Shown here piece by piece: positions 811-46,990 of a DNA stretch of 64,000 nucleotides. Location: positions 1,798,001 to 1,862,000 of the forward strand of contig CDROCS010000288.1 of assembly GCA_977020255.1 (NCBI GenBank), read 5' to 3'. The notes beneath the pieces are model-generated. The model ran no database searches. It had not been told where the DNA came from and was given only the letters and a program-made list of their open reading frames with translations. The DNA comes from Obrimoposthia wandeli. Taxonomy: Eukaryota. Position numbers and translations under genes: made by a program. Position 1 is the stretch's first letter. Each line of letters starts with the position of its first letter.

Positions 811-904
811 CTGTGCTTCATTTATATTTCCCATATGGTATATTGTATTTATCAAATTATTACATTTTGTCGGTCCACTTCCTTTGTTTGGATAATGAAA
901 TCTA

Positions 905-4716: not shown

Positions 4717-4752
4717 AATTGTTTTAGCGTAATCGCTTAATTTCGCCCAACC

Positions 4753-5790
4753 TCAGTTTTCGTCGATACGTTGTTGTAATACATTCTCAATCAGATACAT
4801 TGCTGCACTTATTCCTTGTTTGACTTCGTGAGCTTGACTCGTTCCTTCCGTCAATTGGAAACATAGGTATGTAATTGCTGTGATTAACTTTTTATAAGTA
4901 ATCTGATTTTCAAATAATCTCGCTAAAACTTCACCATCGTAGAATCTGTCTACTGATACATGATATCCCTGGTTTGTAGTCATTCTTTTTACTGCTGACA
5001 TTTGTGATCTAACTGCTCTAATCAAATTGTCTGTTATATCGGTAGTTTAATCTTTGTACATTTGGAACAACTTCGACTTTACTTGCCTGAGAATTCCTGT
5101 AAGTATGTCTTTATTTCACTCTGCACTATACTTCTCTAATGACGCTGCTAACTGTCCAATGCAGTGGTGTCTCTTCTCATCCGTCTGAAGTGCAGTTAAA
5201 ACATTTCGCAATATACTTCCATCCTTTCTAAGTCTTCAGAGTCCTCTTCGAAAATACTGATACTCAGCTTGATTCTCAGCTTGATCATACGGTTCATCGT
5301 TATATCGTATCTCTTGACTTTGTTCTGCTTCATTCTGCCCATCCTTCATTATCTACTAATTTCTGTTGTTTCACAGTGATGACATCAATTTTCTCTTCTA
5401 ATTAGTTTTCTATCAGATATCCAAACTCGACTGGTACATCTTCATCCTCCAGTGATCTTCCTTTATAATAAAACAACATATTCATTCCGTCTATTCCGAG
5501 TTTCTCTGCTAGTTTTTCGAACAGTTTTAATAGTTTGGAATAAGTTAAGTTTTTCGTGTATAATCTGTCCGGAAATTAATCAAAGTAAAAATTTCATCGT
5601 CCCTTTTTGATTTGATCTCTGTACGTAACGACCGTATCCTTTCAATAATCCTCGTGCTCTTTGTAGGTCAAGTTATCATGACTATATTTAACCAACTCTC
5701 CTCGCATTTTTTCCAATCTGTGTACTTTAATTGTTTGTAGTTTTACCAAAACTTCTGGAGCTTCGCTCGCTTCATCTAGCGGTTGATTAA
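4753..5790 (-). pseudogene. Unidentified decayed coding region between gag and the glycoprotein
   Basis: ORF 4753..5025 plus stop-interrupted frames with the same strand bias; no motif recognised. Confidence 0.35.
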
Positions 5791-5794
5791 ACAT

Positions 5795-6855
5795 TTATTT
5801 AGCTTCACTAATTATCTTTTTCACATTTTTCATACTCTTAGCATGTTTTGCTGCTTCTATATGACCAGTCATAGGTTGTACGTTACACGTTTTGTCTATT
5901 GGTGTCTCATACGCTTCTAGTATTCGGTTCATTAAATCATTCATCTCTTCTCTCGTGTGCAGCTTTTTCCCTTGTTGCGACAGCGTAAATGAATTCGCCA
6001 TTTTTGTATGTGGTGAATCTTTGATTATTCCAAACATCCGTTCGAATTTACTATCACTATCTTCAAAATCTACTTCGCGTCTAAGTTCGGTCTCGCGATT
6101 CCTATCGCTGTTATCATTTATGTAACTAAAATTTCCTTTCGGTTTTGGTGACCTTTCACGACTATTTGTCTCGTCAACATTATTATTACTATTATATCTT
6201 CCTGAATTATTGTATCTCTCAGCTCCTTGATGTCTGTCTGCATAATTATTGTATCTGTCTGGCGACTGTTGTCTATCCATATACTCGTGCGTGCGGCCAA
6301 GGTTCTCAAAACATACGCGCATTCATTCACGCTCTCGTCAGGTTTCTGTTTTTGTTCTCTCAAAATTCGCTTATTCACTTTTGCTAAGTCTCCCAATACC
6401 AATTTTTCAAAAAAAGCATCAGCACGTTCTGCTTCTGTCAAGTGTTTATACACTTTGAGTGCTAATCCTGTCAAATGCACCTGTACGCAGACACCTTTTT
6501 CTCTATCGTTCCATCGTTGAACGTATGCGCAACTCAAATATTCAGCGAGGAAGTCACAAATACTTTCCTCATCTCCTTTAAACTTTGTAATCTGCAATGA
6601 TCCCGAAACTTTTGGTCTCAGCGTTGCATTCAAAACGTGTGCCAACTGTTCTGCATTCATATTACCTAAGTTATTTCCTGCATTATTGCCTGGTTGAGCT
6701 CCTGCGTGAGCCATGTTTTCAGCTATATTTTCAGCTATTTCTTCAATATTATTCAAATTAACTTCCTCAATCTCTTTTAGGTTGGCAATTTTGATCTCTT
6801 CTTGATTTGATGCTTCAATAACTTCAATTTCTTCTGGGTTTACTTCACCAAACAA
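5795..6855 (-). pseudogene. Retrotransposon gag (capsid-like domain), frameshifted
   Basis: ITKFKGDEESICDFL..QRWNDREKGVCVQVHLTGLALKVY..LREQKQKPDESVNECAYVLRTLAAR, the typical Gypsy gag major homology region. Confidence 0.8.
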
Positions 6856-7159
6856 ATCAGTATATTCAAAACTGTCGGTTGAAACTGCTGATTGATTAAC
6901 GTCTCTTTCTGATATGTTTTCTTAGATTCTAGCTTCTTCTATTACTTCTTTATCTGTTTGAAAAACCTGTTCAACTCGGTTCGAATTATTATTTATATAT
7001 TCTTGTAGAATCTGACTTTGTCTTCTAGTATTAAACGCGGGTCCTTTTTTTATTCGTTGTCTTATCAATTATGTATTCGTTTATTTCCTACGATATCGAT
7101 TTACTTATTACTTTTATATCTCTTTTCTCAACTATCATTTTATGAATTCTTATACCAAT

Positions 7160-7692
7160 TTGTCTCTTCGAGGAACTTATCTACTCGATTTATCAACCTA
7201 TTTAATTTATCTCTTCGAAGAATATATCTACTCAATTTATTTAATTCGAGGAATATATCTAATCGACTTAACTTATTCAATTTATCTCTTAGAGGAATAT
7301 ATCTACTCGATTTATCTTATTCAATTTATTTAATTCGATGAATATATCTACTCGACTTAACGTATTCAATTTATTTACTTCGAGGAACTTATCAACTCGA
7401 TTCACAAACCTTTTCAACTTAATTACTTCGAGAAACGGATCAACTAGATTTACAAATATATTCAATTTACTTACTTCGAGGAACGGATCAACTCGATTTA
7501 AAAACTTATTCAAATTACTTACTTCAAGGAACGGATCAACTCGATTTACAAATATATTCAATTTACTTACTTCGAGGAATGGATCAACTCGATTTACAAA
7601 TATATTCAATTTACTTACTTCGAGGAACAGATCAACTCGATTTACAAACTTATTTAAATTAATTACTTCGAGGAATATATGAACTCGATTCA
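7160..7692. repeat. 48-bp tandem array (about 11 degenerate copies) in the retroelement leader
   Basis: Unit CGAGGAACGGATCAACTCGATTTACAAATATATTCAATTTACTTACTT; 16-aa periodicity in the overlapping ORFs. Confidence 0.9.
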
Positions 7693-7800
7693 AACACTTA
7701 TTCTCAATTCTCTTATCTCAATTTACTCATATATTCTTCTCTATAACTTATTTTTAATTTACTATCTTATTCTACGTGAATTCGCTGTGTCCGATGAGTT

Positions 7801-8211: not shown

Positions 8212-9466
8212 TATCGATTTTAATTTGACTTAGTAATTTTAAAGGTCCTGTTTTTATTCTCTGAATTGACCTTATTCAGTGGAGTAAATTTGTAAAGGTC
8301 AAGTACATTGTTTTTGTCAAGTTCCCTGTTTCACTTGTGTGAAACTAACACTTACAAGACAATTATAGAACAATTTAAATTAACAGTTACAAATTTCAAT
8401 GTAAATTCGGTTTCACTGTTTCACTTCTGTGAAACTAACAATTACAAATTCAAATACGTTTTCGGCTTCCTAATTTCACTAGTGGGAAATGAACAATAAA
8501 TCTCACCAATTCCGCAAATTTATGAAATGCCAGATATTATTTTTATTTCGGTTTACTTCTCCCCTCTTCCTAATATAACGATCCACCAAAAGTCCACTGA
8601 GAGATCCTCAGATAGCTTCACAGAATCCACTCTTATCTTGGCTCTCCAGTCGTATTGATATCTGGTCTTTCTGGAAGCACTTTCACAATTACTTTAGGGC
8701 AACTAATATCCTTTTCGAATTCACTTTCTGCGTTGATCTCGCTGACTTCTCCCAATTCCAAGTTTGTTGAAGTACTTGTTTTCCGGCTCCGAATTGTTGG
8801 TGGGATTTGGTTTCTCTCTCAGGTCGAGTTTTCTTATTGTTCCATTGAGCTGCGATTCCTTGTCTTATCGTTTTATTGAGCTGTGATTCCTTATGTTTGA
8901 TTTATATTTCTTGTGAGCTGTGTTTGCTGTCACTGCACTTTTATATCTAAACATTTGACGGCTGGCCTCCTTCTCGACTGTCGATTAGTGGCGAGTCTGC
9001 AAGGGAAAATTGCACTTTAATTAAAAGCACTAAACTCTAAAACAACCAAAATCACTCACTCTCGACAATTTCCACAGCCGGTGTCTTCTCACGGCAATGT
9101 CTGGTCTGCAATTTCCTAATGACTTCGTCGTGTGACTCTGCGAGCAAGTTTCTTCTTGGCAATTCTTAATGGATTTCTCAATCTAGTTTTTATATTTACT
9201 TCTTTCTTTATTTATTATTGTGAATTAATTACTCTTACTTTTTGTCGTTAATTACACCTGTTCTCTTTTCTTAGGTGTCTTAATTACTCTCAATCCTTTT
9301 AGGGCCCTGAACTTTTCTACATATCTCACACCAAACATGACCTTTTGAGGTCCTAACTTCCTTCTAATTTATCAATTTTAATTTCATTTAGCCTTGCTTC
9401 CAAAGTTTTTATTTTCCTATATAATAATTAATTAATTCTGTAAATATTAAAATTCTGATCCTAACA
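8212..9466. repeat. LTR-like segment ending in CCTAACA, with a GACC-N7-GGTC hairpin shared with segments at ~48.5 kb and ~52.5 kb
   Basis: GACCTTTTGAGGTCC at ~9340; the terminus at 9466 interrupts the end of the TBP-like pseudogene. Confidence 0.4.
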
Positions 9467-9879
9467 ATATCATAACTTTACCACTGGAAAATATATTTAC
9501 AAATAGCGGTGTAAACTTCAAATATCTGAGTGCAGGAAAAATGTCAGGTTCAAACATGTATTCTTATTTCATTTTCTCTGCAATTTTATAAATATTTATT
9601 GATTTCCCAACATTACCTGAAACTGTGATTGATTGTATGGTGCTGATTATGAATTCCAAATGGTAAATTGATGTCATTCAACGGTGTTTTGCATCCCATA
9701 AAACGACAACTTCCTAAAAAATTCAATATGGAAATAAAATAAAAACTAACCTGAAGGAAATATGACAACTGTGAAATCATCAAACCTTTCTCATATTGTT
9801 TCGGCTTTCACTCATTGAATGGTAAGTGCGAAATATCATCTTCTATTCTTCCTTTATAATTTATATTTACGAGCTTCAA
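9467..9879 (-). pseudogene. TBP-like pseudogene homologous to the Polinton gene at 38900-39364, with an apparent 37-bp GT-AG intron (9714-9750)
   Basis: LVNINYKGRIEDDISHLPF..KPKQY / FDDFTVVIFPSG^SCRFMGCKTP / IQSITVSGNVGKSINIYKI..MFEPDIFPALRYLKFTPLFVNIFSSGKVMIL; co-linear with the Polinton protein; two stops and two frameshifts. Confidence 0.8.
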
Positions 9880-12884: not shown

Positions 12885-14920
12885 CTACAACTCTGTCTTG
12901 GCATCATCCTTCTTGCTGTCACCCTCAGCTCCTCCAGGTGGTGGTGGGGTTCCTCCTTGTTGCTGGTACAGCTTCGTCATGATGGGCTGTACCACATCTT
13001 CGAGCTTCTTCTTCTGAGCCTTGAGCTCCTCAGCCTCAGCATTGGCGTTCTTCTCGAGCCAGCTGATAGCTTCCTCGGCCGCCTTCACCACTATCTCCTT
13101 GTCGGCTGGAGTCAGCTTTCCTCCGAGCTTCTCCTTGTCATTGGTCTGGGTCTTAAGCGAGTAAGCGTATCCTTCCAGCTCGTTCTTGGCTTCGACCTTC
13201 TCCTTAACCTTCTTGTCCTGCTCGGCGAACATCTCAGCATCCTTGATCATCTTCTCAATATCCTCAGTGTTTAATCGGTTCTGGTCTTTCTGGATGACGA
13301 TCTTGTTCTTGTTACCAGTACCCTTGTCCTCAGCAGACACTTTCAAGATGCCATTGACATCGATCTCGAATGTGACCTCGATCTGTGGCACTCCACGAGG
13401 TGCTGGTGGGATTCCAGTTAGATCGAATTTACCGAGGAAGTGGTTATCCTTGGTCATAGGTCTCTCTCCCTCAAATACCTGGATGGTAACGGTGGGCTGG
13501 TTGTCAGCGGCAGTGGAGAAGACCTGGGATTTCTTGGTTGGGATGACGGTGTTCCTGGGGATTAACTTAGTCATGACTCCACCCACAGTTTCGATACCCA
13601 GGGTAAGAGGACACACATCGAGCAGAACAATGTCACTGGTATCCTCGGCACCACCAATGATTCCGGCCTGTACCGCAGCACCGAAGGCCACAGCCTCATC
13701 AGGGTTGATGCCTCTGCTAGGCTCCTTACCATTGAAGTACTCCTTCACAAGCTGCTGCACTTTGGGAATTCTGGTACTACCTCCAACCAGCACAATCTCA
13801 TGTACATCCTCCTTCTTCATGTCACCATCCTTCAGCACCTTCTCCACTGGCTTCATCGTGGACTTAAACAGGTCCATGTTCAGTTCCTCGAATCGAGCAC
13901 GAGTCAGTGTCTCACTGAAGTCATCTCCTTCAAAGAAAGATTCAATCTCGATTCTGGCGCTATGTGCGTTACTCAGTGCTCGCTTTGCCTTCTCTACCTC
14001 TCTTCTCAGCTTCTGGATAGCCCGATTGTCACCAGTGATGTCCTTACCCTTCTTCTTCTTGTACAACTTTCTGAAGTACGCCATCACTCTCTGATCGAAA
14101 TCTTCACCACCCAAGTGAGTATCACCATTGGTGGCAACCACCTCAAACACACCGTTATCGATTGTGAGCAGGGATACATCGAAAGTACCACCTCCGAGAT
14201 CGAACACTAGAATGTTCTTCTCGCCTCCCTTCTTGTCCAGTCCGTAGGCGATAGCGGCAGCAGTGGGCTCATTGATGATTCTCAGCACATTCAACCCAGC
14301 GATGGTTCCGGCATCACTGGTGGCTTGTCTTTGAGCATCATTGAAGTAGGCGGGAACAGTCACAACAGCATGAGTTACCTTCTTACCGAGATATGCTTCA
14401 GCAATTGTCTTCATCTTTCCAAGAACCATTCCAGAGATTTCTTCCGGTGCGAATTGCTTGGCCTCTTCACCAATATTGACCTCAATTACAGGCTTGTTGT
14501 TTTTGTTGATGACCTTGAAGGGGAAATGCTTCATGTCTTCCTGGACAGTCTTCTCCTGGAATGTGCGACCAATAATTCGCTTAGCATCGAACACTGTGTT
14601 CTCAGGATTGGTGGTCAATTGGTTCTTGGCGGCATCACCAATCAATCTCTCGCCTTCTGGAGTGAAGGCAACATAAGAAGGTGTGATACGATTTCCCTGA
14701 TCGTTGGCAATGATCTCAACACGGCCACCTTTGAACACTCCAACACTGCATTTTTAAATCAATTTTATTGTCAATAAAATAATCATTACCATGAATATGT
14801 TGTTCCGAGATCAATACCAATAACGGTACCGTACTCTTCCTTCTTCTTCTCCGTTTTCTCTTCAGTAGCAAATACCGACAGTATTGCTATCGCAAATATA
14901 AAAAAGAACTTAAGTTTCAT
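12885..14920 (-). CDS. HSPA5: ER Hsp70 chaperone BiP/GRP78, 663 aa; exons 14920-14790 and 14745-12885, 44-bp intron 14746-14789
   Basis: Signal peptide [18 protein letters not shown]; [12 protein letters not shown]^VGVF; Hsp70 signatures [14 protein letters not shown]-like and [13 protein letters not shown]; C-terminal KTEL; GT-AG intron restores the frame. Confidence 0.97.
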
Positions 14921-23144: not shown

Positions 23145-25008
23145 TTCCAGCCGGGATTCAGCCGGGATTCAACAAAAACAATTTTTTACTGAGAAATAAA
23201 ACTTCGATGGAACTGAAATTTTGCATGTAATTTGAGATCGATGTCTGGTCACCGTTTCCAAAGTTTCATTCAAAAATATTTATTTCTTCCGGAGATATTC
23301 TCCACCAACCCAGGTTCTACCAGCATTTATACATTTCTGAAACTAAATATCGAAATGTCAATTTCCGGCTCGCGCAACCGCCGAACACAAACCGCTGAAA
23401 TTTGGCAAGCAATTTGTGATCGATGTCTGGCCACCGTTTCCAAAGTTTCATTCAACAAAAAAGTTCAAGGGTCCAAAGATATGACTCAATAATCTTAAAA
23501 ACTTTATAAGACCTTGTCAGTGGTATATATAATTTTGTTAAATTTCTTAAAACCAAGCTATTTAGTGGGTTTAACACAATCTAATGTTAATTATTCAATC
23601 CGTTCAATGGTTCTAGAGATATGAGGTACCAAAAGTCTATATTTAGGGGAAAATGTTGAAGTATTAAAACAAAACATCTGATTCTTTCTAAAACTTAATG
23701 CAAAGTAGGAATAGATATTTGCAAGTGTTTAAATCCATCTGTAAGACAATCAAAGTTGTAATTGTTGCTAAAGTTTGGATCTAAAGGGCAAATGGGCAAC
23801 TCTTAGGAATCGTGGGACCATTATTGATGGAAAGGTATGGATAATTTTAATAAACAATGATAGCCATTTCCATTGGTCTTATTGGTATCTCTATTCTGTG
23901 TGAACTTTAACTTCATAGCACTGTCTAAATAACCTACACTGAGTGGTACATTTACTATCTCTGATATAGTGAGGGGAGATGTTGGTCAATGCGGATCTCC
24001 TCAACCACGAGTCATATTGACAAACGGCTTTTTGTATAGTGTTCAGGATACTCTAGTCTATGTTTCTGGAAGATTTCAATACGGGGGATATTATTGGGCC
24101 AATGTTTTATCAATGGTCAAAATATGGTACTACAAGGTTCATTTTCGATAATTTTCAATCCTAATGGAGCAATATGGATAGCACCATCGTGTTCCTGATC
24201 ATCGATATAGTATATAAGGAATATAAAAAATGTGAGGAAATATATTGGTAGAATGAATATATTAATAAGACAAATGGAAATGACTATCATTGTTTATTAA
24301 AATTATCCATACCTTTCCATCAATCCCACGTTTCCTAAGAGTTGCCCACTTGGCTTTTAGATCCAAACTTTAGCAACAATTACAACTCCGATTGTCTTAC
24401 AGATGGATTTAAACACTTGCAAATATCTATTCCTACTTTGCATTAAGTTTTAGAAAGAATCAGATGTTTTGTTTTAATACTTCAACATTTTCTCCTTAAT
24501 ATAGACTTTTGGTACCTCATATCTCTAGAACCATTGAACGGATTGAATAATTAACATAAGATTGTGTTTAACCCACTAAATGTTATGGTTTTAAGGAATA
24601 AAAATAAATTATATATACCACTGACAAGGTTTTATAAAGGTTTTAAGATTATTGAGTCATATCTTTGGACCCTTGAATTTTTTTTGTTGAATGAAACTTT
24701 GGAAATGGTGGCCAGACATCGATCACAAATTGTTTGCCAAAATACAGCGGTTTGTGTTCGGCGGTTGCGCGAGCCGGAAATTGACATTTCGATATTTAGT
24801 TTCAGAAATGTATAAATGCTGGTAGAACCTGGGTTGGTGGAGAATATCTCCGGAAGGAATAAATATTTTTGAATGAAACTTTGGAAACGGTGACCAGACA
24901 TCGATCTCAAATTGCATGCATAATTTCAGTTCCATCGGAGTTTTATTTCTTAGTGAAATAATATTTTATTTGAATCCCGGATGAATCCCGGATGAATCCC
25001 GGCTGGAA
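23145..25008. mobile_element. Fold-back / non-autonomous DNA element with ~740-bp inverted arms and a ~380-bp spacer
   Basis: Arms 23145-23883 and 24265-25008 are reverse complements (TTCCAGCCGGGATTCA...TGAATCCCGGCTGGAA); the same ORF appears on opposite strands (23232..23492 +, 24632..24910 -); no TSD identified. Confidence 0.85.
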
Positions 25009-33500: not shown

Positions 33501-33916
33501 AAAAGTTGTTTTATGATACCGAATGTCCTTGTGTTGTATTCTCGCTGTAATATCACTATTATCTAATTATAATGGTCAATTAACTCATATTCTACCAAGT
33601 TAGACAAAGTTGAAGATGTTCCTGAGAATGCACAAGAGGAGTTCATTGAACTCATTACCAGCGATGCAACAAAAACTGATTTTTCTTCAATATCAGTTAC
33701 CAAATTTTGGATCAAGAGTTTGCAGTCATATCCTGTTCTGTCTGAGATCGCATTGCGCCTGATTCTTCCTTTTCCAACAACATACCTTTGTGAAACAGGC
33801 TTTTCAAGCTTGTTGGTTATCAAATCTAAATACAGGAGCAGAAGATGATCTGCGTTGTGCTCTTGCAAAGACTGCTCCAAGGATTTCAGATCTGGCGAGA
33901 AAGAAGCAATCACAGT

Positions 33917-35075
33917 AGTAGGTAGAAGGATGGAGTCTAGACCACTTGACCCCCCCTGTGTGCGCACAGAATGTTAAAGGATTTTTTCACCATAAGGGTG
34001 TCACACCATAAGGGTATATGTTGCCTCACCATAGAAATGTCACACCATGAAGGTATATGTTGACTCACCATAACGATGTCTTGCAACACCATAAGGGTCT
34101 GGCTCAGAAAGGTTAAGATAGAGGGGAGGGAGGAAGGGTCAATTGATCTAGTCTCCACCCTTCTTTGGTATACCATTAAAGGGTTGTGATCGTCCATAAT
34201 TTAAAGGGTCAGGCATAGTTTTGACTTGAAGGTTTTAAGGTATGGTCATGACCGTCTATGGTTGGCCATCACATCTAAAGGGTTGTGGTTGTCCATAAAT
34301 CAAAGGGTTAGACTCAGTTTTGACTTGAAACTTTGAAGGTATAATTAAGGTCAACTTTGGTTGGCCATCACATCTAAATGGTTGTGCTCGTCCATAAATC
34401 AAAGGGTCAATGTCAGTTTTGACTTGAAACTTTGAAGGTATAATTTAGGTCAACTATGGTTGGCCATCACATCTACAGGGTCATGGTCGTCCATAGGTCA
34501 AAGGGTCCGGCTAATTTTTTTTTTTTAAATATCAAGGTTTTAGTACATGGTTGTAATCATCTTTAGAAGGTGAATTCACCCATAAAGTATGGCCGTCCAT
34601 AAATCAAAGGGTCGAGCTATAGACCAAATCAAGTTTTAAATGTCAAGGTTTGAATACATGGTTGTAATCATCTTTAGAAGACGAATTCATCCATATATGT
34701 ATGGTCGTCCATAGATGAAGGGTTAAAGAAAAGTTGGAATTTCATAGTTTCAAGTACATGGTTGTATTTGTCAACATATTACGCGTTTATTCATGTAAAA
34801 TTTTTATGGTCGTTCACAAGGTAAGGGTTAGATTTGGCATAAATTAAGAAATTATATAGTGTTCAATCAATTATTCTATGTGAAAGTTCACTCTTAAAAG
34901 TTAAGGAATGTATTACGTAATCACACATACACTATTCTATGTGAAAATTTAGTATAAAGTTCACTCTTATCAGTTAAGGAATGTATTACGTAATCATACA
35001 CACACTATTATATGTGAAAATTTAGATCAATATTTTTTCCTAGGCTTACACATCCAAAGAATTATGTTAAAATTT
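33917..35075 (+). repeat. Polinton left TIR with internal tandem subrepeats
   Basis: Reverse complement of 45688-46537 plus extra subrepeat copies (e.g. GGTTGGCCATCACATCTAAAGGG units). Confidence 0.9.
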
Positions 35076-35136
35076 ATAGTAAATCAAAAATAAATAAGAA
35101 AGAAGTCAGAGAATAATACAAAATTAAACACATTTA

Positions 35137-38100
35137 TTATGTAATTTCATAATGTCCATAAGCGCGGCTTCTATTTTTCTCGATCCAATAGCGTTTGTCA
35201 TCTGATGAGCTGAGAGCAGTCTTTTGTGTTATGATTGTGTATAGTTGATGATTTATTGTTCCAAACTTCTTTTGTGGTATAGTATATGCATTACCGTTTT
35301 CATACACGTCTAAATATGTTTGATGTACAACCGTTGATCCCTTAAGATTTACTCCTTTTGCTTTATTATTTTCAAAGTCATCTTCAAATTTAAGTGAATT
35401 ACATTTACAAAGTAAGAAAATCCATTCTTTATACATTCTTCCTTCCGATTCATCTTTAAATAAACCTATTTTACTATTAAATTTATTAGAATATAATGGA
35501 TCATTCACATTATAATTTGACGTATCTAATAATCCATCTGCAATCATTTTTGGTAACAACTGCTTTCTTAAATTAATGTTTTTACATTCCAAAAAGAATG
35601 AGTCGGTATCACCGGCAACTATATTAATTGAACAATTGAATAAATTACGATATATTTGCAAATCATGATACTGAAGAGTATACATTCGTAATTTGCTAAG
35701 GTCTAGTACAGCTTGGCCTATATAATTTGGTCGATCGAGACAAATAAAGTCTTTTCTTAATAAAACAGCTATTAAATTATCATGAATTTCAATTGTTCGT
35801 TGAAACATAGGTTTGCTAGTATATGTAATTAATTTTGTAGAACTAGTGCAGATGCGAAGATTCAACCGTTTCTTAACATTTTCAACGGTCTTTCCATACA
35901 AACTAACATTTTTAAGTTTATAAAAATCTTTGTCACATTTATTCGTTGCTTGTGATCTCATTTCTGAATTATATTCTATATATTCTGCGAATATCTTAGC
36001 CTGAGAGAATTTTACTGCTCGATGAATAATTGTTACCACTGCTCCTAAACTAACATACATCTGCAATAGTCTCCAATGAATAACATAATGACTTTTTAGC
36101 GAATGCGTCATTAAAAGTTTTTCAACTTTTTTACCAGGTGGACATTTCTTTTCTGGAGCTATAGGAAGATCGTCTAAAAAGTCATGAAGGTTTTCTGGTA
36201 TTACCAAGTCTACTTCCATAACATAACCATATTCAATATGTTCCATGTTCACATTTTTCATTTCATGCAATATTTCGTTTAATTTTATATCATCAAGAAT
36301 CCATTCAAAATCTCCTTTTGGTAAAGGTTGATCAAGAGCCCATCCATATAAATTATTAACATCTATATATAAAAGACTTGTTTCTTCATCAGCGACTACA
36401 TGATGCTTATTGACAAATGTCATTCCTCCTCGTATACCCGAAGAAATCATGTTGTACATTTCAGGATCCTGCATCAGTTCAACCTTATGTTTTAACATTT
36501 TTAGAGCACTTGCCCAACTCAACCCAGGAATGCTAAAAAGTTAAGTGGTTCTAAACCATCTTCACTGAGAGCTTTTCTTCTGAATGTTTGAAACACGTCA
36601 GCTAATAAATATACGTCAGTCTTTAAGTAAACTAACATATAATCCAACATATTTCTACAATTGGTTATTTTCCAAACATCTTGTGCTTTTTGATATTCAG
36701 TGTCTGTGATTTTATCATTCCATTTTACTGGTAAACTTAACTTATTCTGGAGGACATTTAATGATGTAGCAAAATCATATAGGAATATTCCTTTGCCATC
36801 AATAAGTTTAGATGGAAAAACTGATCTTGTTAATGGAATAGTTGGTAATTTACCGGCTAAATTTTCCAAAGATGATTGCAAAAATTGCAAAGAATCTATA
36901 AATCTCAGAGTTATTTGACCTAATCTTACAATCATGGCTTGAAACATTTCCGTTGATTGTGGTATAATATTTATATCCCAGTCAGTAAATTTATTCAATG
37001 CATATTTTAAAATATGATGTAAATCATAACCTCTGAGATTATGAAACACAATAGGTAAAGTTGGACAAAGTTTTCTTGATAAATTACATTCATTGCATGC
37101 AGGATCTAGATACTTGCCAGTAAAGTGATCATGATCTTTAACATATTTTTCAGATGATTCGTGACATAAATAACATTCATCGGCATTGCTAAATGTACGA
37201 ATCTCTGCATTTGTTAAGGGAATCATTACGTTTTTAAGAGCATCTAAATACCATGGCAAAACCTTTTCTTTAGCCAAGTTCTCTATTGACTGAAGAAATT
37301 TAACTATGCAGTCATCACCAACATTATGTTGATACTGGGTTTCAATTTCATCTGTACTCATAAATAACATACCAGATGCGACAGGCATATGCTTTTGATG
37401 ATAACTCTCATCTGGTACTAATACAGATTCAAAATCAGCGTAAACGACATATTTCGGTGATATAGTTTTTGACCAATCGTTGAATTTAACGTACTTATTC
37501 TTAGGCATAGTATACATTGTAGTGCTTTCTTGATTATAGTCACATAAAACTTTATGCTTTTCTAATTACAAATCGGTTTTGAAACCATGTAAACACTTTT
37601 CACACCATTTTCTGCTAATTCTAGTCTTTCCAGTTCGAATATTTAATAGTCGGTTAAGACAACTTATTCCTATATAATGAAACCGTTCCTTGGATTCTAG
37701 TAACAATAAATTAACTATAGTTCCTTCCTTCATTTTTGATTGGTATACAACATCGATATAAGGATTCTTGATAACATCAGTTTTTGATTCTTTTTCACTT
37801 ACCTCGTTGAATATGAATACATTTATTATTATACCAGGATTTTGCCGTTCAAATTTTGATATATTTGATATTTTCATAGGCATGTCTTCGGTATTATATA
37901 CAAAATCATTTAAAAATCTTTCATAGTTGCTTGGTCTATTTCTATGTGATTCTATTTCATTATATTTAAGTATTGACAATATTGCATAAATAAAGCAAAG
38001 ATTATCAGAGTTTAGAATATTTATGACTGCTTTAGATTTTGTAAGAGAATTTGGTGATTTAATATATGAATGACCTGACAATGCACAAATTTGACTATAT

Positions 38101-38408
38101 TTAGTAGCTATAAATGCATATTCAAGTATATTCATCAATTTCCAACAACTACCCTTTTCTGAATATTCTTCAACTTTATTTTCCATTGTATCTTCCATTT
38201 CTGAAATTATAGCATGTGAAAAAATCATTGCTCGATGTGAAGCATACCATTCTTTAGTTTCTCCATCATTCTTTTCAAACCTCATTCTGATGATGTATTG
38301 AATCTTTGCATTTCCCATTAATTGCACTATTCTTTCTAGTTCATTTAATAATGAAACTGGAACCTTAAGACTTACAAGATTGAGATGATCTACTTTCATG
38401 GATATCAT
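35137..38408 (-). pseudogene. Protein-primed DNA polymerase B with an endonuclease-VII-like HDH..C..CN insert
   Basis: YADFE, HDHFTG..ACNECN, FHNLRGYD, DSLQFL, IRGG, YIDVNNLYGWA, YGKT, DTDSF motifs; in-frame stop at 37566-37568 and a frameshift near 36540. Confidence 0.93.
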
Positions 38409-38488
38409 TGAATAACTATTTTTTAACGATGTTTTAGTCTGTATATTGTCATTTTTTTTACGTTTTCGTGACGGAGTAGAAGCTGGAA

Positions 38489-38827
38489 TTACTTTATTGA
38501 TGGTTCATTAATTATATCAGTTCTTTTGCTTAAAACCGGTACTTTAAATAATGTTTTCTTACTACCATTTTTATATTCTTTTAAATGACTAATATGTCGA
38601 CTATAAAAGAAGTTGTAATCAACATTTTCAGTGCTTAAACATTGTGGACATATGAAATAATTTATTCTTTTGTATGAATAACCATAATAATTTTTCATGA
38701 TATCATGACAGACTTGAGGATTAAAATCTGTTTCCGATGAACAATAATTTGAATAAGTTTTACATATACTCATCTGATGATATGATTGGTATTGAGACAT
38801 TGATTGATTTGATTGGACTTGAGACAT
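38489..38827 (-). CDS. Polinton hypothetical protein with a CPQC..H motif
   Basis: Intact 112-aa ORF divergent from the TBP-like gene. Confidence 0.5.
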   Translation of the reverse strand: MSQVQSNQSMSQYQSYHQMSICKTYSNYCSSETDFNPQVCHDIMKNYYGYSYKRINYFICPQCLSTENVDYNFFYSRHISHLKEYKNGSKKTLFKVPVLSKRTDIINEPSIK

Positions 38828-38899
38828 TTTGATCTAAAAAAATAAATAAAAATAAATATATATATATATAAATACAATAATTTAATTATTTTACTTACA

Positions 38900-39364
38900 A
38901 TGTTAACAAATATTAATTATAAAGGAATTTGCTTAGATGATGTATCCAAATTAAAATTTCGAACACGACCAGAACAATACGTTTATAAAGCCAAAGATTA
39001 TACAATACTTATTTTTAGAAATAAGAAATGCAGGATTATGGGATGTAAGGTACCTATTAAAAATATTTCTTACCCTTTAAGAATAAATATACTTGGTATT
39101 CAATCAATTACGGTATGTGAAAATTTAGATCAAAGTATCAATCTATTTAAATTATGGAATGTGTTACGTAATACATGTTCATTTGACCCTGAGGTTTTCC
39201 CAGGCTTAAGATTAAATATTTTCAATCCATTGTGTGTAAATATTTTCACATCTGGAAAGGTCGTAATTTTAGGTATTAGAAATTTAGATTTTCAAAATCA
39301 AGTTAACGATATCATGACATACATTAAAAAAATTTTATATAAATACGAAACAATTTCTAATTAA
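38900..39364 (+). CDS. TATA-binding-protein-like protein (two-repeat TBP fold), Polinton-encoded, intact ORF
   Basis: TNINYKG..TILIFRNKKCRIMGCK (repeat 1); IQSITV..SFDPEVFPGL..VNIFTSGKVVILG (repeat 2, hallmark of TBP: YEPELFPGL..LIFxSGKxVxTG). Confidence 0.85.
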   Translation: MLTNINYKGICLDDVSKLKFRTRPEQYVYKAKDYTILIFRNKKCRIMGCKVPIKNISYPLRINILGIQSITVCENLDQSINLFKLWNVLRNTCSFDPEVFPGLRLNIFNPLCVNIFTSGKVVILGIRNLDFQNQVNDIMTYIKKILYKYETISN

Positions 39365-39379
39365 ATCATTCAATTTTAA

Positions 39380-39730
39380 ATGTCTTATAAAGCTGTTCAA
39401 AAGTATTACGAGTATGATATGTTCTTCTTGGCATCTGCATGGATTCATCCAATGACTATGCCAGTGACATTATCGAAAACTTCGTACAATTACCGAGTCT
39501 CTGATTTTGACAACAAAGACATTCAACAACTCAATGATGTCATCAAATATTTGAAGATTGACGTTGAACTTGAGAATGAGGGTATATTTATGCGCGGAGA
39601 TAAGTGTAAATTTTATGATTGTTCCGGAACAAAGATTTCGGATAATCAAGAAGATGGAAGAAGTTGGATGCTCGAAATAAAAATTCTCGGATATAAAATA
39701 AATAAAAAGAATCAAACAACTCTCATCTGA
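39380..39730 (+). CDS. Polinton hypothetical protein
   Basis: Intact 116-aa ORF between the TBP-like and ATPase genes; beta-rich, function not recognised. Confidence 0.5.
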   Translation: MSYKAVQKYYEYDMFFLASAWIHPMTMPVTLSKTSYNYRVSDFDNKDIQQLNDVIKYLKIDVELENEGIFMRGDKCKFYDCSGTKISDNQEDGRSWMLEIKILGYKINKKNQTTLI

Positions 39731-39839
39731 AGGATTCATACAGCGACCGAATATTTTGATGTTTAATAAATAAATATTTAATAAAATGTTGTTATTGTTA
39801 TAAACATGGACTTATTCTGATATATTTATTTTATATTAA

Positions 39840-39873
<34 letters not shown>

Positions 39874-39875
<2 letters not shown>

Positions 39876-40504
39876 GTTATTAACAAACAATTCGACTTTT
39901 CAAGTAGTAGGACCAAGTGGTAGTGGAAAAACTTTATTTGTTTGTAAATTATTAAATTCAAAAATGTTTAAAAATAAATTTAATAAAATATATTGGCATC
40001 AAGGTGGTGACGGAGAAGCTGGTTTAACAAACCAAGAATTTAATAAAATAAAAAAACATTAAGATTATTAACGGTTTTGATGAAAATTGGACTACAAGAC
40101 TCGTAAAAGGTGATGTAATTGTTATTGATGACTTATATCAAGAGGCTAACAAAGAATATGATTTTAATGATTTATTTACAAAAATTGCAAGACATAGAGA
40201 AGTTACTGTAATTTTTATAACCCAAAATTTATTTCATCAAGGAGGAAATCATCGTACTCGTAATCTTAATGTACATTATTTGATTTTATTCACAAATCCT
40301 AGAGATCAAACAGTGATAGATTTTATTGCTCGTCAAGCATTTCCTCATAACAAGAGTTATTTAATTGATGCGTTTCATGATGCTACATCTTTACCTCATG
40401 GTTATTTATTTTTAAATTTTACTCTATCATGTCCTGATGATTTAAGAATTGTTACTGATATATTTAACCGTAATGGTATTACAGTCTATAAACAAAATAA
40501 ATAA
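39874..40504 (+). pseudogene. A32/FtsK-like packaging ATPase, premature stop at 40060-40062
   Basis: Walker A VVGPSGSGKT, Walker B IVIDDL, KIARHREVTVIFITQNLF, YLILFTNPRD. Confidence 0.9.
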
Positions 40505-40524
40505 TAATAAAGTTTTAAAATAAA

Positions 40525-40935
40525 ATGAATTTTAAAAAGAGTATTTTTAAACATAGTAAAAGGACAGATAAAGATGAAGTTAAAAAATTAATAAACACTG
40601 TATTATATGATCGTAATAATATTGAATTTTCAAAAAGTTTACCTTATTTTAAAACCTTAATTGACGTATCAAAAACGAATAAAATGAAAATATTGAAATC
40701 ATTTCCAATTTATGTAGTTGATGATTTAATAAAAATTTTAAATAAAATAATTTATGGTAAAATTAAACCTGATCCTAATATTTTAAAATATAAAAATTCA
40801 TTAATAAATTTAGCAAATTCACGTGGTAAAATTAATAAGAGAAACATTATTTACAATCAAAATGGTGGATTCCTATTGGCCATACTGCCCGCTATAGCAT
40901 CAGTAATAGCTGGTCTTATAAGTTCAAGAAGTTAA
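40525..40935 (+). CDS. Polinton core/cement-like protein ending in an adenovirus pX-like GGFL..I motif
   Basis: C-terminus NQNGGFLLAILPAIASVIAGLISSRS. Confidence 0.6.
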   Translation: MNFKKSIFKHSKRTDKDEVKKLINTVLYDRNNIEFSKSLPYFKTLIDVSKTNKMKILKSFPIYVVDDLIKILNKIIYGKIKPDPNILKYKNSLINLANSRGKINKRNIIYNQNGGFLLAILPAIASVIAGLISSRS

Positions 40936-41063
40936 AACTATGCAATACTTTCGTTTTATACAAACATATAAACAGATTAAAATATATTTAACTTTTATAA
41001 TAATGGGGATAAACAATACAAAGTTGTCTAACTTATTTATAAATTTTAATTCTTCATGCTGCA

Positions 41064-42090
41064 ATGGAAAAGATTTGGAACAATCCAGAAGATCCAGACG
41101 GGTATACAGGGTTAGAAAAATTGACAAAAAGAGTCAAACAATCAAAAGCAAATACACAAAAATGGTTAAGAAATGAATTATCATATAGTTTGAATAAACC
41201 TTTAAGACGTAAATTTCCTACTAGATCATATAAAACTAATGGTATTAATTCCTTATGGCAGATGGATTTAATGGAAATGATACCTTATTCTTCAGTAAAT
41301 AACGGATTCAAGTATATTTTAACTTGTATTGATGTATTTAGTCGTTTTGCAAGGGCAGTTGGTATTAAATCAAAATCGGGTATTGATTTATTACATGCAA
41401 TAGAATCTTTAATTGTTGATGATGTACCAGTAAATATCCAAACCGATGAAGGTAAAGAATTTTTTAATTCACATGTTAAGAAATTATTTAAAACTGAAAA
41501 TATCAATCATTATTCAGTATATTCTCAATATAAAGTTGCAGTATTTGAAAGATTTAAATAGAACGTTAAGAGAATGGTTAAAGAAATAGTTTACTAAACA
41601 AGGTAATAAGAAATGGGTGAATGTATTACCAAAAATTATTTATGCTTATAATAATTCTAAACATAGAGGTTTAGATGGTTTAAAACCTGTAGATGTAAAT
41701 AATAAAAATGAATTTGATATTTTGTTGAAACAAAATCTAAAAGAAAAGAAAGTTAAATCTAAATATAAAATTGATGATTATGTTCGAATATCAAAAATAA
41801 GTACAAGTCCATTTATTAAAAATTTTAATCAAAATTGGAGTGATGAGGTTTTTCAAATTCATGATATTAATTATAAACAAAATCCAATAATGTATATTTT
41901 AAAAGATATTGATAACGTCATCATCAAAGGAAAATTTTATAAACAAGAGTTACAATTAATTGATAAACCTAAACTATATCGAATACAAGAAATTTTAGAA
42001 ACTAAAGGTCGTGGTAAGAATGAACAATATTACGTAAAGTGGCACGGATACTCTGAACCTTCTTGGATATTTGCTTCTCAAATTGAATAA
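41064..42090 (+). pseudogene. Retroviral-like DDE integrase with a C-terminal chromodomain-like region; frameshift at ~41557 and stop at ~41586
   Basis: LWQMDL, YILTCIDVFSRF, IQTDEGKEF, ERFNRT, YRIQEIL..YYVKWHGY..SW. Confidence 0.92.
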
Positions 42091-43103
42091 TGTCAAAATA
42101 TATTATTTTACCTAGTAATAGTTGTCCAAGTACTCAACCTAACAATACAGCCAATCAATTTACTGTAGATTGGGAAAACTCTCTAAATTTAGATGGTGAA
42201 TGGGAGGTTGCCTTGACTGAATTTGTATTTAATTATACTCCTTTAACAATACAAACTAATTCAAAAATACTTTATAAAATGGAAAAGATAAAAATGAAAA
42301 TTTTCGATGTATCTTTTGCAATTTTAAATGGATTAATTTTTAATAATTTAAATAATGTTTTCAATTTCAAAATTACAAAGGATGAAAAATTAGAAATAAG
42401 TACAATTAACAGTATTCATCGAATGTTGTTAAAATTCAAAACTTTAGAAGAATCAAAAATTATAGGTTTTAATGAAATACAAAAAATTTCTAGTCATGTT
42501 ATAACAAGTGATGAAATTGTTGACATAAATAAAAATATTCATGCTAAAATGAGAATTACAATTTATTCTTTAGCTGAATATGAATACGAAATAAAATTTA
42601 ATCAAAATTATTTGATACAAGATAGTTCTTCATTATGTAATATTATAGCCAGTAAATGTAATGAAATTTTTAAAAGCTGTAATATAGATTCAAACGGATT
42701 ATTTGATATTTTAATAAAGAAAAATGTAAAATCAGTTTTATTTGACCAAAAACTTGCATCTTTATTAGGTTTAAATAATGTTTTCTTTGAGAAACGAATT
42801 AAAGGTTTTCAAGAACCAACACTTTCCAGCTCATATAATCAAATGTATATTTATACTAGTTGAACAGATTCTGTCTTAGTAGGATCTGATTATGTTCCAC
42901 TGTTAAAGTCTATTTGGTTAAAATCATTAAAATATCGATATGGAGATGTAGTAAATGTTAAAATTGATAATCCAATGTACTTGAAAATGAGAGATTCAAG
43001 TATTAATAGAATCGAGGTAAATATACGTGATGATTCTGGTAATTTAATTCCATTTTCATATGGAGCAAAAACTAGTTTAACTCTTCATTTACGTAAAGTA
43101 TAA
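42090..43103 (+). pseudogene. Minor capsid (penton-like) protein, premature stop at 42861-42863
   Basis: YIILPSNS..NNTANQFTV..LNLDGEWEVALTEF; reads on in frame YIYTS*TDSVLVGSDYVPLLK..IEVNIRDDSGNLIPF..LHLRK. Confidence 0.85.
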
Positions 43104-43139
43104 ACAATATAAATATATTTAAAATATAAAAATATAAAA

Positions 43140-43544
43140 ATGAATACATCAATTATAAAATTTTATAGCAAAAGTCAACAGGGCGGTGAACTTCCCTATT
43201 TCATTGGTAAGCAATATGGATCTAGTTGGTTTCAAACTATTTCTAGATTAGCTATTCCATTGTTAAAAAAAGTTGGTTTATCAGCAGCTACAAGTGCTGC
43301 CAATGTAATTGGTGAAACGGTAGGAACTGCGTTAACAAATCCAAAAAACATAATTTCATCTCTCAAAGAAAATACAATCAAAGAAGTCAAAACTTTGATT
43401 CCAAAATTAAAAAATAATGCTGTTGATAGTTTAAATAAAGTCGCAAATTGTGTTGAACAAAATGGAAAGGGTCTTAAACGTAAAAGAAATAATTTAAATA
43501 GTATAAACAAACGTCTTAAAGGTACTATTTTCCAAAATGACTAG
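43140..43544 (+). CDS. Polinton core protein (pVII-like, QxGG motif)
   Basis: FYSKSQQGGELPYFIGKQYGSSWFQTISRLAIPLLKK. Confidence 0.65.
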   Translation: MNTSIIKFYSKSQQGGELPYFIGKQYGSSWFQTISRLAIPLLKKVGLSAATSAANVIGETVGTALTNPKNIISSLKENTIKEVKTLIPKLKNNAVDSLNKVANCVEQNGKGLKRKRNNLNSINKRLKGTIFQND

Positions 43545-44757
43545 TATAAAATCTGAATTGTGTATTTTCGATAGACCACTACCTCAAGTAGTGATTGAAA
43601 ATTCATGTTTTGAAGAAATATTTCCAATCAATTCAATTACTGGAAAAAATTTAAATGACATAGAATTTAATATTCATGCATCTGAAGAAGATTATCTGGA
43701 TTTGAATGATACTTTGTTAAATATTAAATTAAAAGTTGTAAATGAAGATGGTACTGATTTAATGAAAGATAGTGATGTAACTCCAGAGAATTACATGTTT
43801 CAAACTTTGTTTAGAGATGTTATTCTAACACTTAATAATGTAAAGGTTGAAGGAGGAAATGGAACGTATACTCATAAGGCTATATTCGATACTCTTTTGA
43901 ATTTTAGTAGTGATACCAAGTATACTAACCTTGAATGTAGTGGGTATGATGATGAAGCAGAAAATCGTAAACAATGGATTAGTGAATCTAAAATATTTTC
44001 ATTATGTAATTCAATTAGATTAGATTTCTTTGAACAACCAAAATATTTGATTCCAGGGATTAATGTTCATTTGAGATTTATGAGAAATCAGCATAATTTT
44101 TCGCTCTATTCAGAAACTTCAAAACCAATTATTCAAATTCTAGATGCTAGATTGTATGTTAGAAGAGTAAAAGTTGATTCTTCAGTAATGATTGGACATC
44201 AGTTAGGTTTGCAAAGTCAGAATGCAGTTTACCCAATTAGAAAAACTCAGTTAGTAACATATTCAATTCCTCAGGGTTCTTTGGAACTTAATAAAGATCA
44301 AATATTCGGAGACTATCGTTTACCCAAGTTCATTTTGATTGCTTTCAAAGATACACCTCAGGGTGGTAAGGAATACAAAGTTAAATCTTCTACGTTCGAT
44401 ACATTTAATGTTTCAACAATATCATTAGCTAGAAATACATATTATCGAGAAACTTATAATCTAGATAATAACAATTTTTCATTAGCATATATGCAGTCAA
44501 TTATTCGAAATATGAATATTTTAGATAAAAACGTGAATAATGGTATCAGATTTTCTGATTTTAAATCAGGAAGTTCGATTTTCACTTTTCTATTAGCACC
44601 AGATTTTGATATAAACACTACTCAAGTGCCTAAAACTGGTAATTTAAGACTTGAAATTAGATTTAATTCTCCTTTGACCGTACCAACAAGTGTTTTGATT
44701 TACGGAATATTTGATTCCGAAATTCAGATTACGAAAAATAAAACTGTGATTGTATGA
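43537..44757 (+). CDS. Major capsid protein (double jelly-roll), intact 406 aa
   Basis: KSELCIFDRPLPQVVIE, YLDLNDTLL, KYLIPGINVHLRF, ARLYVRRVKV, GNLRLEIRF. Confidence 0.9.
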   Translation: MTSIKSELCIFDRPLPQVVIENSCFEEIFPINSITGKNLNDIEFNIHASEEDYLDLNDTLLNIKLKVVNEDGTDLMKDSDVTPENYMFQTLFRDVILTLNNVKVEGGNGTYTHKAIFDTLLNFSSDTKYTNLECSGYDDEAENRKQWISESKIFSLCNSIRLDFFEQPKYLIPGINVHLRFMRNQHNFSLYSETSKPIIQILDARLYVRRVKVDSSVMIGHQLGLQSQNAVYPIRKTQLVTYSIPQGSLELNKDQIFGDYRLPKFILIAFKDTPQGGKEYKVKSSTFDTFNVSTISLARNTYYRETYNLDNNNFSLAYMQSIIRNMNILDKNVNNGIRFSDFKSGSSIFTFLLAPDFDINTTQVPKTGNLRLEIRFNSPLTVPTSVLIYGIFDSEIQITKNKTVIV

Positions 44758-45130
44758 AGTAAGCTTATTGTATATTATATTCTTTATTAAAATTAGTACT
44801 TTAGAAATTCATAAATCCGGAAAAATATTATTGAATAACAAATTTAATGAAGTATATTCATTGGATAAAATTCCATCATTAAAACCCGGAGGTTACATTA
44901 TCAATACTCATACTTCAAATCTACCAGGCGAGCATTGGATAGCAATATTCGTTGACAGATTCGAGATTCGAGTGTTTGATCCTTTTGGATTCTATTATCC
45001 TGCAAAGTTGGTGTCTACACTTGAAAAAGAAAACATTCCAGTCTACTATAATCGAGTTAAATGTCAGAATCCATTAACTAAAAACTGCGGACCTCTGAGT
45101 CTTTTATGGTTGAAACTTCAACACAAATAA
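44750..45130 (+). CDS. Adenain-like cysteine protease
   Basis: IINTHTSNLPGEHWIAIF, FDPFG, Q....KNCG catalytic motifs. Confidence 0.88.
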   Translation: MYEVSLLYIIFFIKISTLEIHKSGKILLNNKFNEVYSLDKIPSLKPGGYIINTHTSNLPGEHWIAIFVDRFEIRVFDPFGFYYPAKLVSTLEKENIPVYYNRVKCQNPLTKNCGPLSLLWLKLQHK

Positions 45131-45181
45131 TTTTAAGTATAAACAAATATATCATTATAGTATTTCATTTTATTTTTTCAA

Positions 45182-45634
45182 ATGGCTTTTATTGATTTAG
45201 AATGTTTTATTGATAATAATGGAGAATATATTCCAAAGGAATTATGTATAATGTATGTGAATGATATGACTTGTCCATTTCATTACGTGTTTAAAAATCA
45301 AATACCATGGAGTAGTTTATCATTTACAGTTAAAAGAAAAAATCTATATTTGATAAATCATCATCATCAGTTATCCTGGTTTGAAGGTGAAAGCTCTGAA
45401 ATTCATATTGATGATGTTGAAACAATATTCTATGTTATGGATTCTATTGATGGAAAGAAAATTAATTTAGTGAAACGAATGTTTCCAAATTTGAGAATTG
45501 TGAATTATAATAAAAGTTTCAAAAATTTAAAGAAAATGCCAAAAAATATTCGATGTCTGTTTAGAAAACACGGAAAACATTGGGCTTATTTGAAATGTTT
45601 TTCTCTATGTATTGATTATATAAATTGTATATAA
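45182..45634 (+). CDS. Polinton accessory protein, DEDD-exonuclease-like
   Basis: FIDLECF..PKELC..HHHQLSWFEG pattern. Confidence 0.5.
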   Translation: MAFIDLECFIDNNGEYIPKELCIMYVNDMTCPFHYVFKNQIPWSSLSFTVKRKNLYLINHHHQLSWFEGESSEIHIDDVETIFYVMDSIDGKKINLVKRMFPNLRIVNYNKSFKNLKKMPKNIRCLFRKHGKHWAYLKCFSLCIDYINCI

Positions 45635-45687
45635 ATATATTCATTAATGATATTTGATTTTAATATATAATTTATGTTATTTAAATT

Positions 45688-46537
45688 AATTTTACCATAT
45701 TTCTTTAAATGCATAAGCCTGGAAAAAACTTTGATCTAAATTTTCACATAGAATAGTGTGTGTTATTACGTAATACATTCCTTAACTGATAAGAGTGAAC
45801 TTTCACATAGAATAATTGATTAAATACTATATAATTTCTTAATTTATGCCAAATCTAACCCTTACATTGTGAACGACCATAAAATTTTTACATGAATAAA
45901 CTCGTAATATATTGACGAATACAACCATGTACTTGAAACTATGAAATTCCAACTTTTCTTTAACCCTTCATCTATGAACGACCATACATATATGGATGAA
46001 TTCGTCTTCTAAAGATGATTACAACCATGTATTCAAACCTTGATATTTAAAACTTGATTTTGTCTTTAGCCCGACCCTTTGATTTATGGACAACCATACT
46101 TTATGGGTGACTTCGTCTTCTAAAAATGATTACAACCATGTACTAAAACCTTGATATTAAAAAAAAAAATTTAGCCCGACCCTTTGACCTATGGACGACC
46201 ACAACCCTTTAGATGTGATGGCCAACCATAGACGGTCATGACCATACCTTAAAACCTTCAAGTCAAAACTATGCCTGACCCTTTAAATTATGGATGACCA
46301 CAACCCTTTAGTGGTATACCAAAGAAGGGTGGAGACTATATCAATTGACCCTTCCCCCCTCACCCTATCTTAACCTTTCTGAGCCAGACCCTTATGATGT
46401 GGCAAGACAACCTTATGGTGAGTCAACATATACCCTTATGGTGTGGCAAGACACCCTTATGTTGAAAAAAAATCCTTTAACATTGTGTGCGCACACAGGG
46501 GGGGTCAAGTGGTCTAGACTCCATCCTTCGACCTACT
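45688..46537 (-). repeat. Polinton right TIR
   Basis: Reverse complement of the left TIR, with fewer subrepeats. Confidence 0.9.
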
Positions 46538-46990
46538 CACAGCCTTCTCACTGACGCTTTTTGGTTTTCGCAATTCGAACTTTTTTGTAGTTTTGTTGTG
46601 TTGATAAAATTATTATGATTCAATTATTGAAAATTTGTAAATAAAAAACATTGTGCCAATAAATTTTTTGTAGTTAAAATATAACAAATTGTTGTGTTGA
46701 TAAAATTATTTTATCCTTGGGGTCACCGCAACTTGGCAAATGTTATCAAGGGGTCACCGCACCAGAAAGGTTGGGAACCGCTGGTTTACAGTTATAAAAT
46801 TTAAGTCTTTTATAAGGAAAATTTAAAAAATTAACAGACTTCAATGTTATGATTTTCGGTTTAATAAGACTCCACCTGATTTCTTTGGATTAGTATAATT
46901 ATAGAAATAATTTTAATAATCTAACATTGCTTATAATAGTCAATAAATTGTCTAGAACTGTCAAAGCAGCCTATCAACAATTCATACAAG

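Follow-up and report, generated by a model that had tools for sequence, protein, structure and literature searches.

A piece of the element's own TBP-like gene in the inner terminal inverted repeats of a Maverick/Polinton family: a probable relic of capture and decay

Maverick/Polinton elements of vertebrates measure 12.7-24.6 kb and carry terminal inverted repeats (TIRs) of 46-1447 bp, and a terminal motif of (AG)3 or (AGT)2 is given for Maverick/Polinton elements in the accessible text of PMC8097293. TBP is named only in one figure legend within the available part of PMC8502044. The TIRs of Galileo in Drosophila mojavensis grow by tandem repeats, up to three units, and by the addition of the element's own internal sequence (accessible text of PMC3573991). 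In Turmoil-1, a Harbinger element of C. elegans, coding fragments of 131-205 bp lie in both inverted ends, where they are decaying (accessible text of PMC2572040). No description of self-derived TIR sequence in Mavericks was found in the literature searched, which covered the accessible portions of PMC8097293, PMC10748475 and PMC8502044 among others and was sparse in subscription papers.

The window analysed here is a stretch of 64,000 nucleotides from Obrimoposthia wandeli, and all positions are those of the window. It contains a copy of a high-copy Maverick/Polinton family, called family A, with these features:

33917-46537: family-A Maverick/Polinton element, 12.6 kb, assigned from its TIR pairs and its pPolB and rve hits
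33911-33916, + strand: left target-site duplication (TSD) CACAGT, agreeing with the right TSD at 5 of 6 bases
46538-46543, + strand: right TSD CACAGC
33917-35070, + strand: left TIR, about 1.15 kb, inner limit approximate
45695-46537, - strand: right TIR, about 0.84 kb, inner limit approximate
34177-34840, + strand: outer TIR array of 99-111-nt units, with no detectable likeness to the element interior
35137-38408, - strand: protein-primed DNA polymerase B (polB) region in three ORF pieces (PF03175, E 1.4e-13, above the cut-off)
38489-38827, - strand: 112-aa ORF, first gene of the polymerase module
39380-39730, + strand: 116-aa ORF, which in other families lies upstream of TBP on the opposite strand
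39874-40504, + strand: packaging ATPase-like region, split near 40055 (best match Pox_A32, E 0.0013, below the cut-off)
41064-42090, + strand: rve integrase with a chromodomain-like tail, split (PF00665, E 1.2e-10)
43537-44757, + strand: probable double jelly-roll major capsid protein (Atlas neighbours 0.97; PF21738 on 15-65% of members)
44750-45130, + strand: adenain-like protease (best match Peptidase_C5, E 0.0066, below the cut-off)
45182-45634, + strand: 150-aa terminal ORF reading toward the right TIR, with no AATAAA between its stop and the block described below

A protein-primed polB, an rve integrase and long TIRs with a 6-bp TSD place the element among the Maverick/Polinton elements (adintoviruses), which it also resembles in its length of 12.6 kb and may resemble in its ATPase-, protease- and capsid-like ORFs. 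The polB assignment is backed by tblastn synteny with other elements; the putative capsid ORF reached a recognition value of 2225, under the 2300 mark, and found no match in Pfam or PDB sequence searches. Several ORFs of the window copy are interrupted by stops or frameshifts. Another family-A copy (L037/L038) has a perfect 6-bp TSD (6/6). The element ends in AGTAGG..CCTACT, missing the (AGT)2 motif by one base, and an AATAAA sits right at the last polB stop, about 85 nt ahead of the left TBP-derived block. Family A is abundant and young: its TBP-like gene has 1338 candidates in the genome, the best 40 of which lie at 99-100%, and the inner TIR has 1485, of which the best 40 were scored.

Around the element, several neighbours were recognized by eye. 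The Maverick appears to be inserted in the decayed 3' end of a hAT-like transposase (33560-33916 and 46544-46790). An Hsp70/BiP-like host exon with a KTEL end lies at 12885-14753 on the - strand, and positions 1-7700 (- strand) form a decayed LTR-retrotransposon-like region with gag-, protease- and envelope-like frames, a RING-like ORF at 700-1080 and a tandem array at 7150-7715. A pair of 750-nt inverted repeats with 93% identity at 23148-24994 is probably another TIR element.

The gene and the TIR sequences that resemble it are laid out as follows:

38900-39364, + strand: TBP-like gene, intact ORF of 154 aa (PF00352, E 6.5e-13; solved TBPs, E 4.8e-15)
39094-39208, + strand: donor segment, about 115 nt, codons 65-103, the IQSI..FPGL region of the TBP repeat
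34857-35048, + strand: TBP-derived block of the left TIR, arranged A-b-C-link-B-C-link-B-D, gene sense inward
34883-34952, + strand: 73-nt tandem unit 1
34956-35025, + strand: 73-nt tandem unit 2 (93%)
45714-45829, - strand: TBP-derived block of the right TIR, one unit, gene sense inward, with an exact 23-nt match at 45728-45750

The TBP-like protein has one clear TBP repeat, at residues 64-148, and a degenerate N-terminal half. The family-A gene has no intron. Its protein has 16 environmental relatives at 43-52% and five distant matches in viral contigs at 30-36%, and older sub-lineages of the gene are present elsewhere in the genome. The donor segment divides into parts A (39094-39110), B (39114-39136), C (39137-39172), a 22-nt spacer and D (39195-39208).

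An earlier note on this DNA had proposed that the inner ends of both TIRs are built from the element's own TBP-like coding sequence, and our comparison bears this out. Local scores of gene against TIR were 63 on the left and 47 on the right; none of 3000 first-order Markov versions of the gene reached them, and neither did any of 514 other 465-nt windows in either orientation (best 31). When the protein was kept and its codons were replaced by random synonymous ones, 2 of 3000 versions reached the score for the left TIR and 53 of 3000 for the right. The synonymous null averaged 35 and the Markov null 22, which shows that the TIR carries the codon pattern of the protein. The 23-nt word pointed out in the note occurs just twice in the window, at 39114-39136 (+) and at 45728-45750 (-); the left TIR keeps 20 of its 23 nt at 35011-35030. 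Three further shared words were located: TTCAATCAATTA at 34862 and 39099, with one mismatch in the right TIR; GGAATGT(A/G)TTACGTAAT at 34905, 34978, 45765 (-) and 39156; and TTTTCC(C/T)AGGCTTA at 35035 and 39195, of which 45714 holds a variant. The gene-derived part is confined to the inner ~200 nt of a TIR of ~1.1 kb, and the nine outer 120-nt TIR windows matched the element interior no better than the Markov null. A 26-nt likeness of the outer TIR units to the 112-aa ORF (E 0.01) falls inside the null range.

Some details of the note needed revision. The limits proposed for the shared segment, 34843 in the TIR and 39076 in the gene, are too wide; junctions in older TIRs place the start of the gene-derived part near 34857 and 39094. 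The shared words are collinear only if a tandem duplication is allowed, since the gene reads A-B-C-D and the TIR reads A-b-[C-link-B]n-D, that is, A, a shortened B, one to three units of C-link-B, and D. The segment is indeed amplified, but to two 73-nt units in the left TIR of the window and one in the right TIR rather than the three or so suggested. The link is similar to the end of A, and in the gene C and A are separated by about 75 nt, so that the 73-nt unit appears to have arisen by slippage between these two parts. Unit number varies in the family: among 42 distinct ends, which were chosen for bearing the motifs, 25 have one unit, nine have two and eight have three.

The block is family-wide. 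Under a lenient fuzzy match, D was found in 44 and A in 41 of 45 distinct inner ends; the exact 23-mer is kept in 18 of the 45. These ends are not a random sample, since the loci were picked by gene or TIR searches. When the window and 20 stretches taken from 10 copies were searched with an anchor, 18 ends were recovered, each of them with the block. Sub-lineages that bear it are up to about 10-20% apart.

The direction of transfer was from gene to TIR, as the note had supposed. The segment encodes residues conserved in 14 environmental relatives and in solved TBPs (Q68, S69, L82, P97, E98 and F100 are invariant or nearly so in the 14), and the TIR copy is broken by indels. The TIR of the window agrees with the bases of older gene lineages at 39095, 39148 and 39150. 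All five TIR leads tested were closer to an older gene copy, L135, than to the gene of the window, with 66-69 matches against 63-65 of about 79, a gap of 1-4 bases. In five arms of older TIRs the longest exact match to L135 is 54, 43, 39, 38 and 23 nt; in the window TIRs it is 15 nt, and their longest exact matches to the window gene are 20 and 23 nt. Older TIRs that retain the gene's A-B junction account for three of the four matches in a pattern search, and in older TIRs the gene piece joins the outer unit directly through a TAG common to both, while sequence like the outer unit returns after D. The closer match of older TIRs to the older allele suggests that capture came first, followed by tandem amplification and decay.

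More than one event may be recorded in the block. At 39129, most innermost B blocks carry the younger gene base (the exact younger tail is present in 21 of 42 ends) whereas older lead blocks carry the older base, and in one locus, L191, the innermost B extends for 19 nt as unchanged gene sequence. This split at 39129 suggests a second capture or a later conversion rather than a single event. Pattern searches of the genome found no gene copies bearing the TIR-type bases.

The note had also named the block as a possible recombination substrate, and one locus is an example. At G000:C55 the 4.1-kb polymerase module is tandemly duplicated: its sequence matches that of the window in descending order from 39364 to 35011 and then jumps back to 39136, which puts the crossover inside the shared 23-nt block. 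The two halves are unlike, at 98.4% over 1576 nt and 92.9% over 672 nt, which would argue against a simple assembly slip. Such events are rare, as three of four genome searches for hybrid TIR/gene patterns gave no match and the fourth gave four, namely three older TIRs and the recombinant at G000:C55. Several shortened derivatives were also noted. An old 0.57-kb derivative, L190:283-854 (G000:C1147), has both termini and two TBP-derived arms 55 nt apart, and these arms fold into a stem of ~55 bp (z -16.65). A 3.5-kb non-autonomous derivative, L105:655-4180 (G000:C1574), has inverted arms that reach into the polB 3' end, and deleted family-A derivatives that include the TBP-like gene lie head-to-tail at ~2.45-kb spacing (G000:C3529:30900-41300 and C819:106500-112000).

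A protein search gave 36,028 TBP-like candidates in the genome, 150 of which were scored, and Mavericks with a TBP-like gene seem to make up one of the major repeat classes of this genome, often nested within each other. Ten loci were drawn from this search; eight were extended, and seven with both ends were compared, TIR against interior. C432, which lacks its far end, and C4694, an inverted duplication, were left out of the comparison. Three of the seven elements, from two lineages, have a long TIR-to-interior match, with nulls of 30 shuffles each. In C2837 and C1910, which belong with C432 to one family, 73 nt at the inner TIR end match a mid-element stretch at 89-90%; the donor is a stop-free frame of 283-365 codons, and the score is 104 against a null maximum of 49. 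In C4559, stretches of 63 and 136 nt match at 84-87% a GT/AG-bounded sequence between two parts of polB, a probable intron, with scores of 85 and 187 against null values of 30 and 33. The remaining four elements (C5219, C1857, C1043 and C819) gave weak TIR-to-interior matches only, of at most 33 nt. The captured pieces of both lineages have the donor sense pointing outward, opposite to family A. That they differ in content and point the other way favours general capture over autoregulation of TBP.

Further features of the other families were noted along the way. The TBP-like gene has a short GT-AG intron in some, and polB a probable one (L088:1-450; L095:6975-7124 with L096:1-285; L100:648-860). 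Beside the TBP-like gene, BIR/RING (IAP-like) motifs were seen by eye (L095:5900-6880, L088:600-900). An intergenic motif is repeated around the TBP-like and IAP-like genes of the C4559/C5219/C1857 group (L095:5745-5845, L096:350-532, L079:9269-9362, L089:9303-9395); it has a 21-nt relative in the TIR and is possibly a shared promoter element. The termini of family E are long hairpin-like palindromes with poly-C/poly-G arms, unlike those of family A (L102:3045-3219, L087:5860-6030). A TBP fragment at L087:5714-5857 that was considered as a TIR piece was rejected, being part of another family's copy. In the window itself, a disrupted TBP-like gene at 9430-9873 (- strand) belongs to a second family, B, which is older than family A and very abundant, with 4894 candidates for the gene and the best other copies at 87-91%. 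None of eight family-B loci gave usable TIR pairs, and some have long tandem arrays with periods of roughly 49 and 98 nt.

Four other accounts of the family-A block have to be weighed against capture and decay. It could be the scar of a rearrangement, in which a TBP-like gene that once adjoined the TIR was inverted into the middle of the element and left a remnant behind; the note had raised a former terminal position of the gene. Such a position is possible. Six other elements have the gene within 0.8-2.4 kb of the left TIR and the polymerase module co-directional at the far end, and the family-A layout is theirs with the block from TBP to the terminal ORF inverted. The fragment is oriented inward like the terminal gene of those six elements, an agreement that alone has a one-in-two chance, and TIR-adjacent sequence does get recruited, as C1043 and L105 each carry the 3' end of polB in duplicate, one copy per end. 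Against this, the piece comes from mid-gene with TIR-unit sequence on both sides, and its near-identity to a family-A allele implies that it arose long after the divergence from families that share about 45-50% amino-acid identity. A terminal position is also not needed, because two other lineages captured central sequence without such a move and keep the ancestral order. We regard a scar as unlikely. The reverse transfer, in which TIR sequence overwrote part of the gene, or a chance likeness of AT-rich sequences, is highly improbable. The right TIR taken alone is equalled by those 53 synonymous versions, and single sites such as the shared state at 39129 could have passed from TIR to gene; but the Markov versions and other windows never reach the score, older TIRs have exact matches of 38-54 nt, the segment retains residues of an ancient protein family, and gene copies with TIR-type bases did not appear in the pattern searches. 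For the segment as a whole, the nulls, the long exact matches and the protein conservation refute both reverse transfer and chance.

Two accounts give the block a function. In one, read-through of the convergent terminal genes, or hairpins from short derivatives, would yield antisense or small RNA against the TBP-like gene, which the note had suggested as autoregulation. Transcripts reading through at either end would be antisense, no AATAAA separates the right terminal ORF from the block, the exact 23-nt match is of small-RNA size, and the old derivative at G000:C1147 does form its stem. The polB gene, in turn, has an AATAAA right at its stop, the blocks of the window fold no better than shuffles (z 0.10, -0.54 and -0.22), fewer than half of the ends (18 of 45) keep the exact 23-mer, the TIR has drifted from the current allele and fits older ones better, and the pieces of other lineages point outward, one of them being probably intronic. 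TBP autoregulation is thus not supported, and an RNA regulator seems very doubtful to us. In the other account, the captured unit was kept and amplified for putative protein-binding sites that would aid transcription or replication from the ends. The unit's palindrome ATTACGTAAT, which we take to resemble PAR/E4BP4 bZIP sites, is lengthened to 10 bp in the TIR by a single change from the gene; TTACGTAA is present in each unit, the block is retained in 44 of 45 ends, and the accessible text of PMC3573991 considers tandem binding sites in the TIRs of Galileo. The palindrome is lost from some units (L033, L034, L041, L042, L045 and L047), the unit count ranges from one to three, and TTACGTAA also occurs twice elsewhere in the element interior. 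This account is quite unlikely in our judgement. A broader reading, in which inner Maverick TIR ends are recurrent and occasionally refreshed capture sites (the donor differs in each of the three lineages) whose pieces are kept for module shuffling and, through short hairpin derivatives with small RNAs against the element's genes, as a brake on copy number, we consider rather unlikely.

The observed homology, its direction, the fit to an older allele, the variation in units and the single recombinant are best explained by capture and decay, with the TBP block as a by-product of replication that has no dedicated regulatory job; we give this reading a probability of about 0.62. About 115 nt of the TBP-like coding strand was copied into the inner part of one TIR in an ancestor of family A, most likely by a polymerase template switch at a few bases of microhomology during protein-primed strand-displacement replication. 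The displaced strand may have paired through its TIRs, holding the interior in a loop during the switch. Because the block is present at both ends, TIR-to-TIR conversion would then have transferred the piece to the other end. Part of the block became, apparently by slippage, a 73-nt unit in one to three copies, and the block has since drifted from the gene, its direct and inverted homology sometimes driving rearrangement. The same capture seems to have recurred independently in other Maverick lineages of the genome. The inner TIR block itself is real, family-wide and, taking these lineages together, recurrent. Its retention in nearly all ends could reflect selection, which counts against the relic reading, and the absence of a function is argued indirectly, from sequence.

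If capture and decay is correct, the block bears on how Mavericks replicate. Maverick replication is inferred and hardly observed, and distant internal sequence at both inner TIR ends fits a looped, TIR-paired intermediate with end-to-end copying; three lineages with dated intermediates would amount to a fossil trace of replication. Capture also offers a source for tandem units in TIRs and for changes of gene order between families. As a marker, the block can be traced through more than 1000 candidate copies, and the short derivatives could show if captures feed small-RNA silencing.

Adenovirus provides the model for the replication steps. There, panhandle replication and repair of the inverted terminal repeats are known, and pairing of the displaced strand through its terminal repeats would let sequence pass from one end to the other; for family A this panhandle would serve as a mechanistic model only, by analogy. 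Compared with the Mavericks described in the literature searched, family A stands out by its TBP-like gene, a piece of its own coding sequence in the TIR and the terminus AGTAGG. A viral antisense miRNA or hairpin autoregulator would have a stable precursor, which is seen in the derivative G000:C1147 and not in the blocks of the window. Similar to Galileo, family A combines tandem expansion with recruitment of the element's own interior. Galileo, a cut-and-paste element, recruits mostly the TIR-adjacent region and does so mainly in non-autonomous copies (accessible text of PMC3573991), whereas the family-A donor is coding, lies 4.0 kb and 6.5 kb from the two blocks rather than next to a TIR, and has given rise to a block that is fixed throughout a family with full gene sets. 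Turmoil-1 is alike in that the direction of transfer was argued from protein conservation, and it differs in that its donors are the host genes rsp-2 and cpg-3 (accessible text of PMC2572040), while the family-A donor is the element's own gene. With precedents in Galileo and Turmoil-1 and none found for Mavericks, the family-A block represents recruitment of sequence into the TIR, which most likely came about as a side effect of replication.
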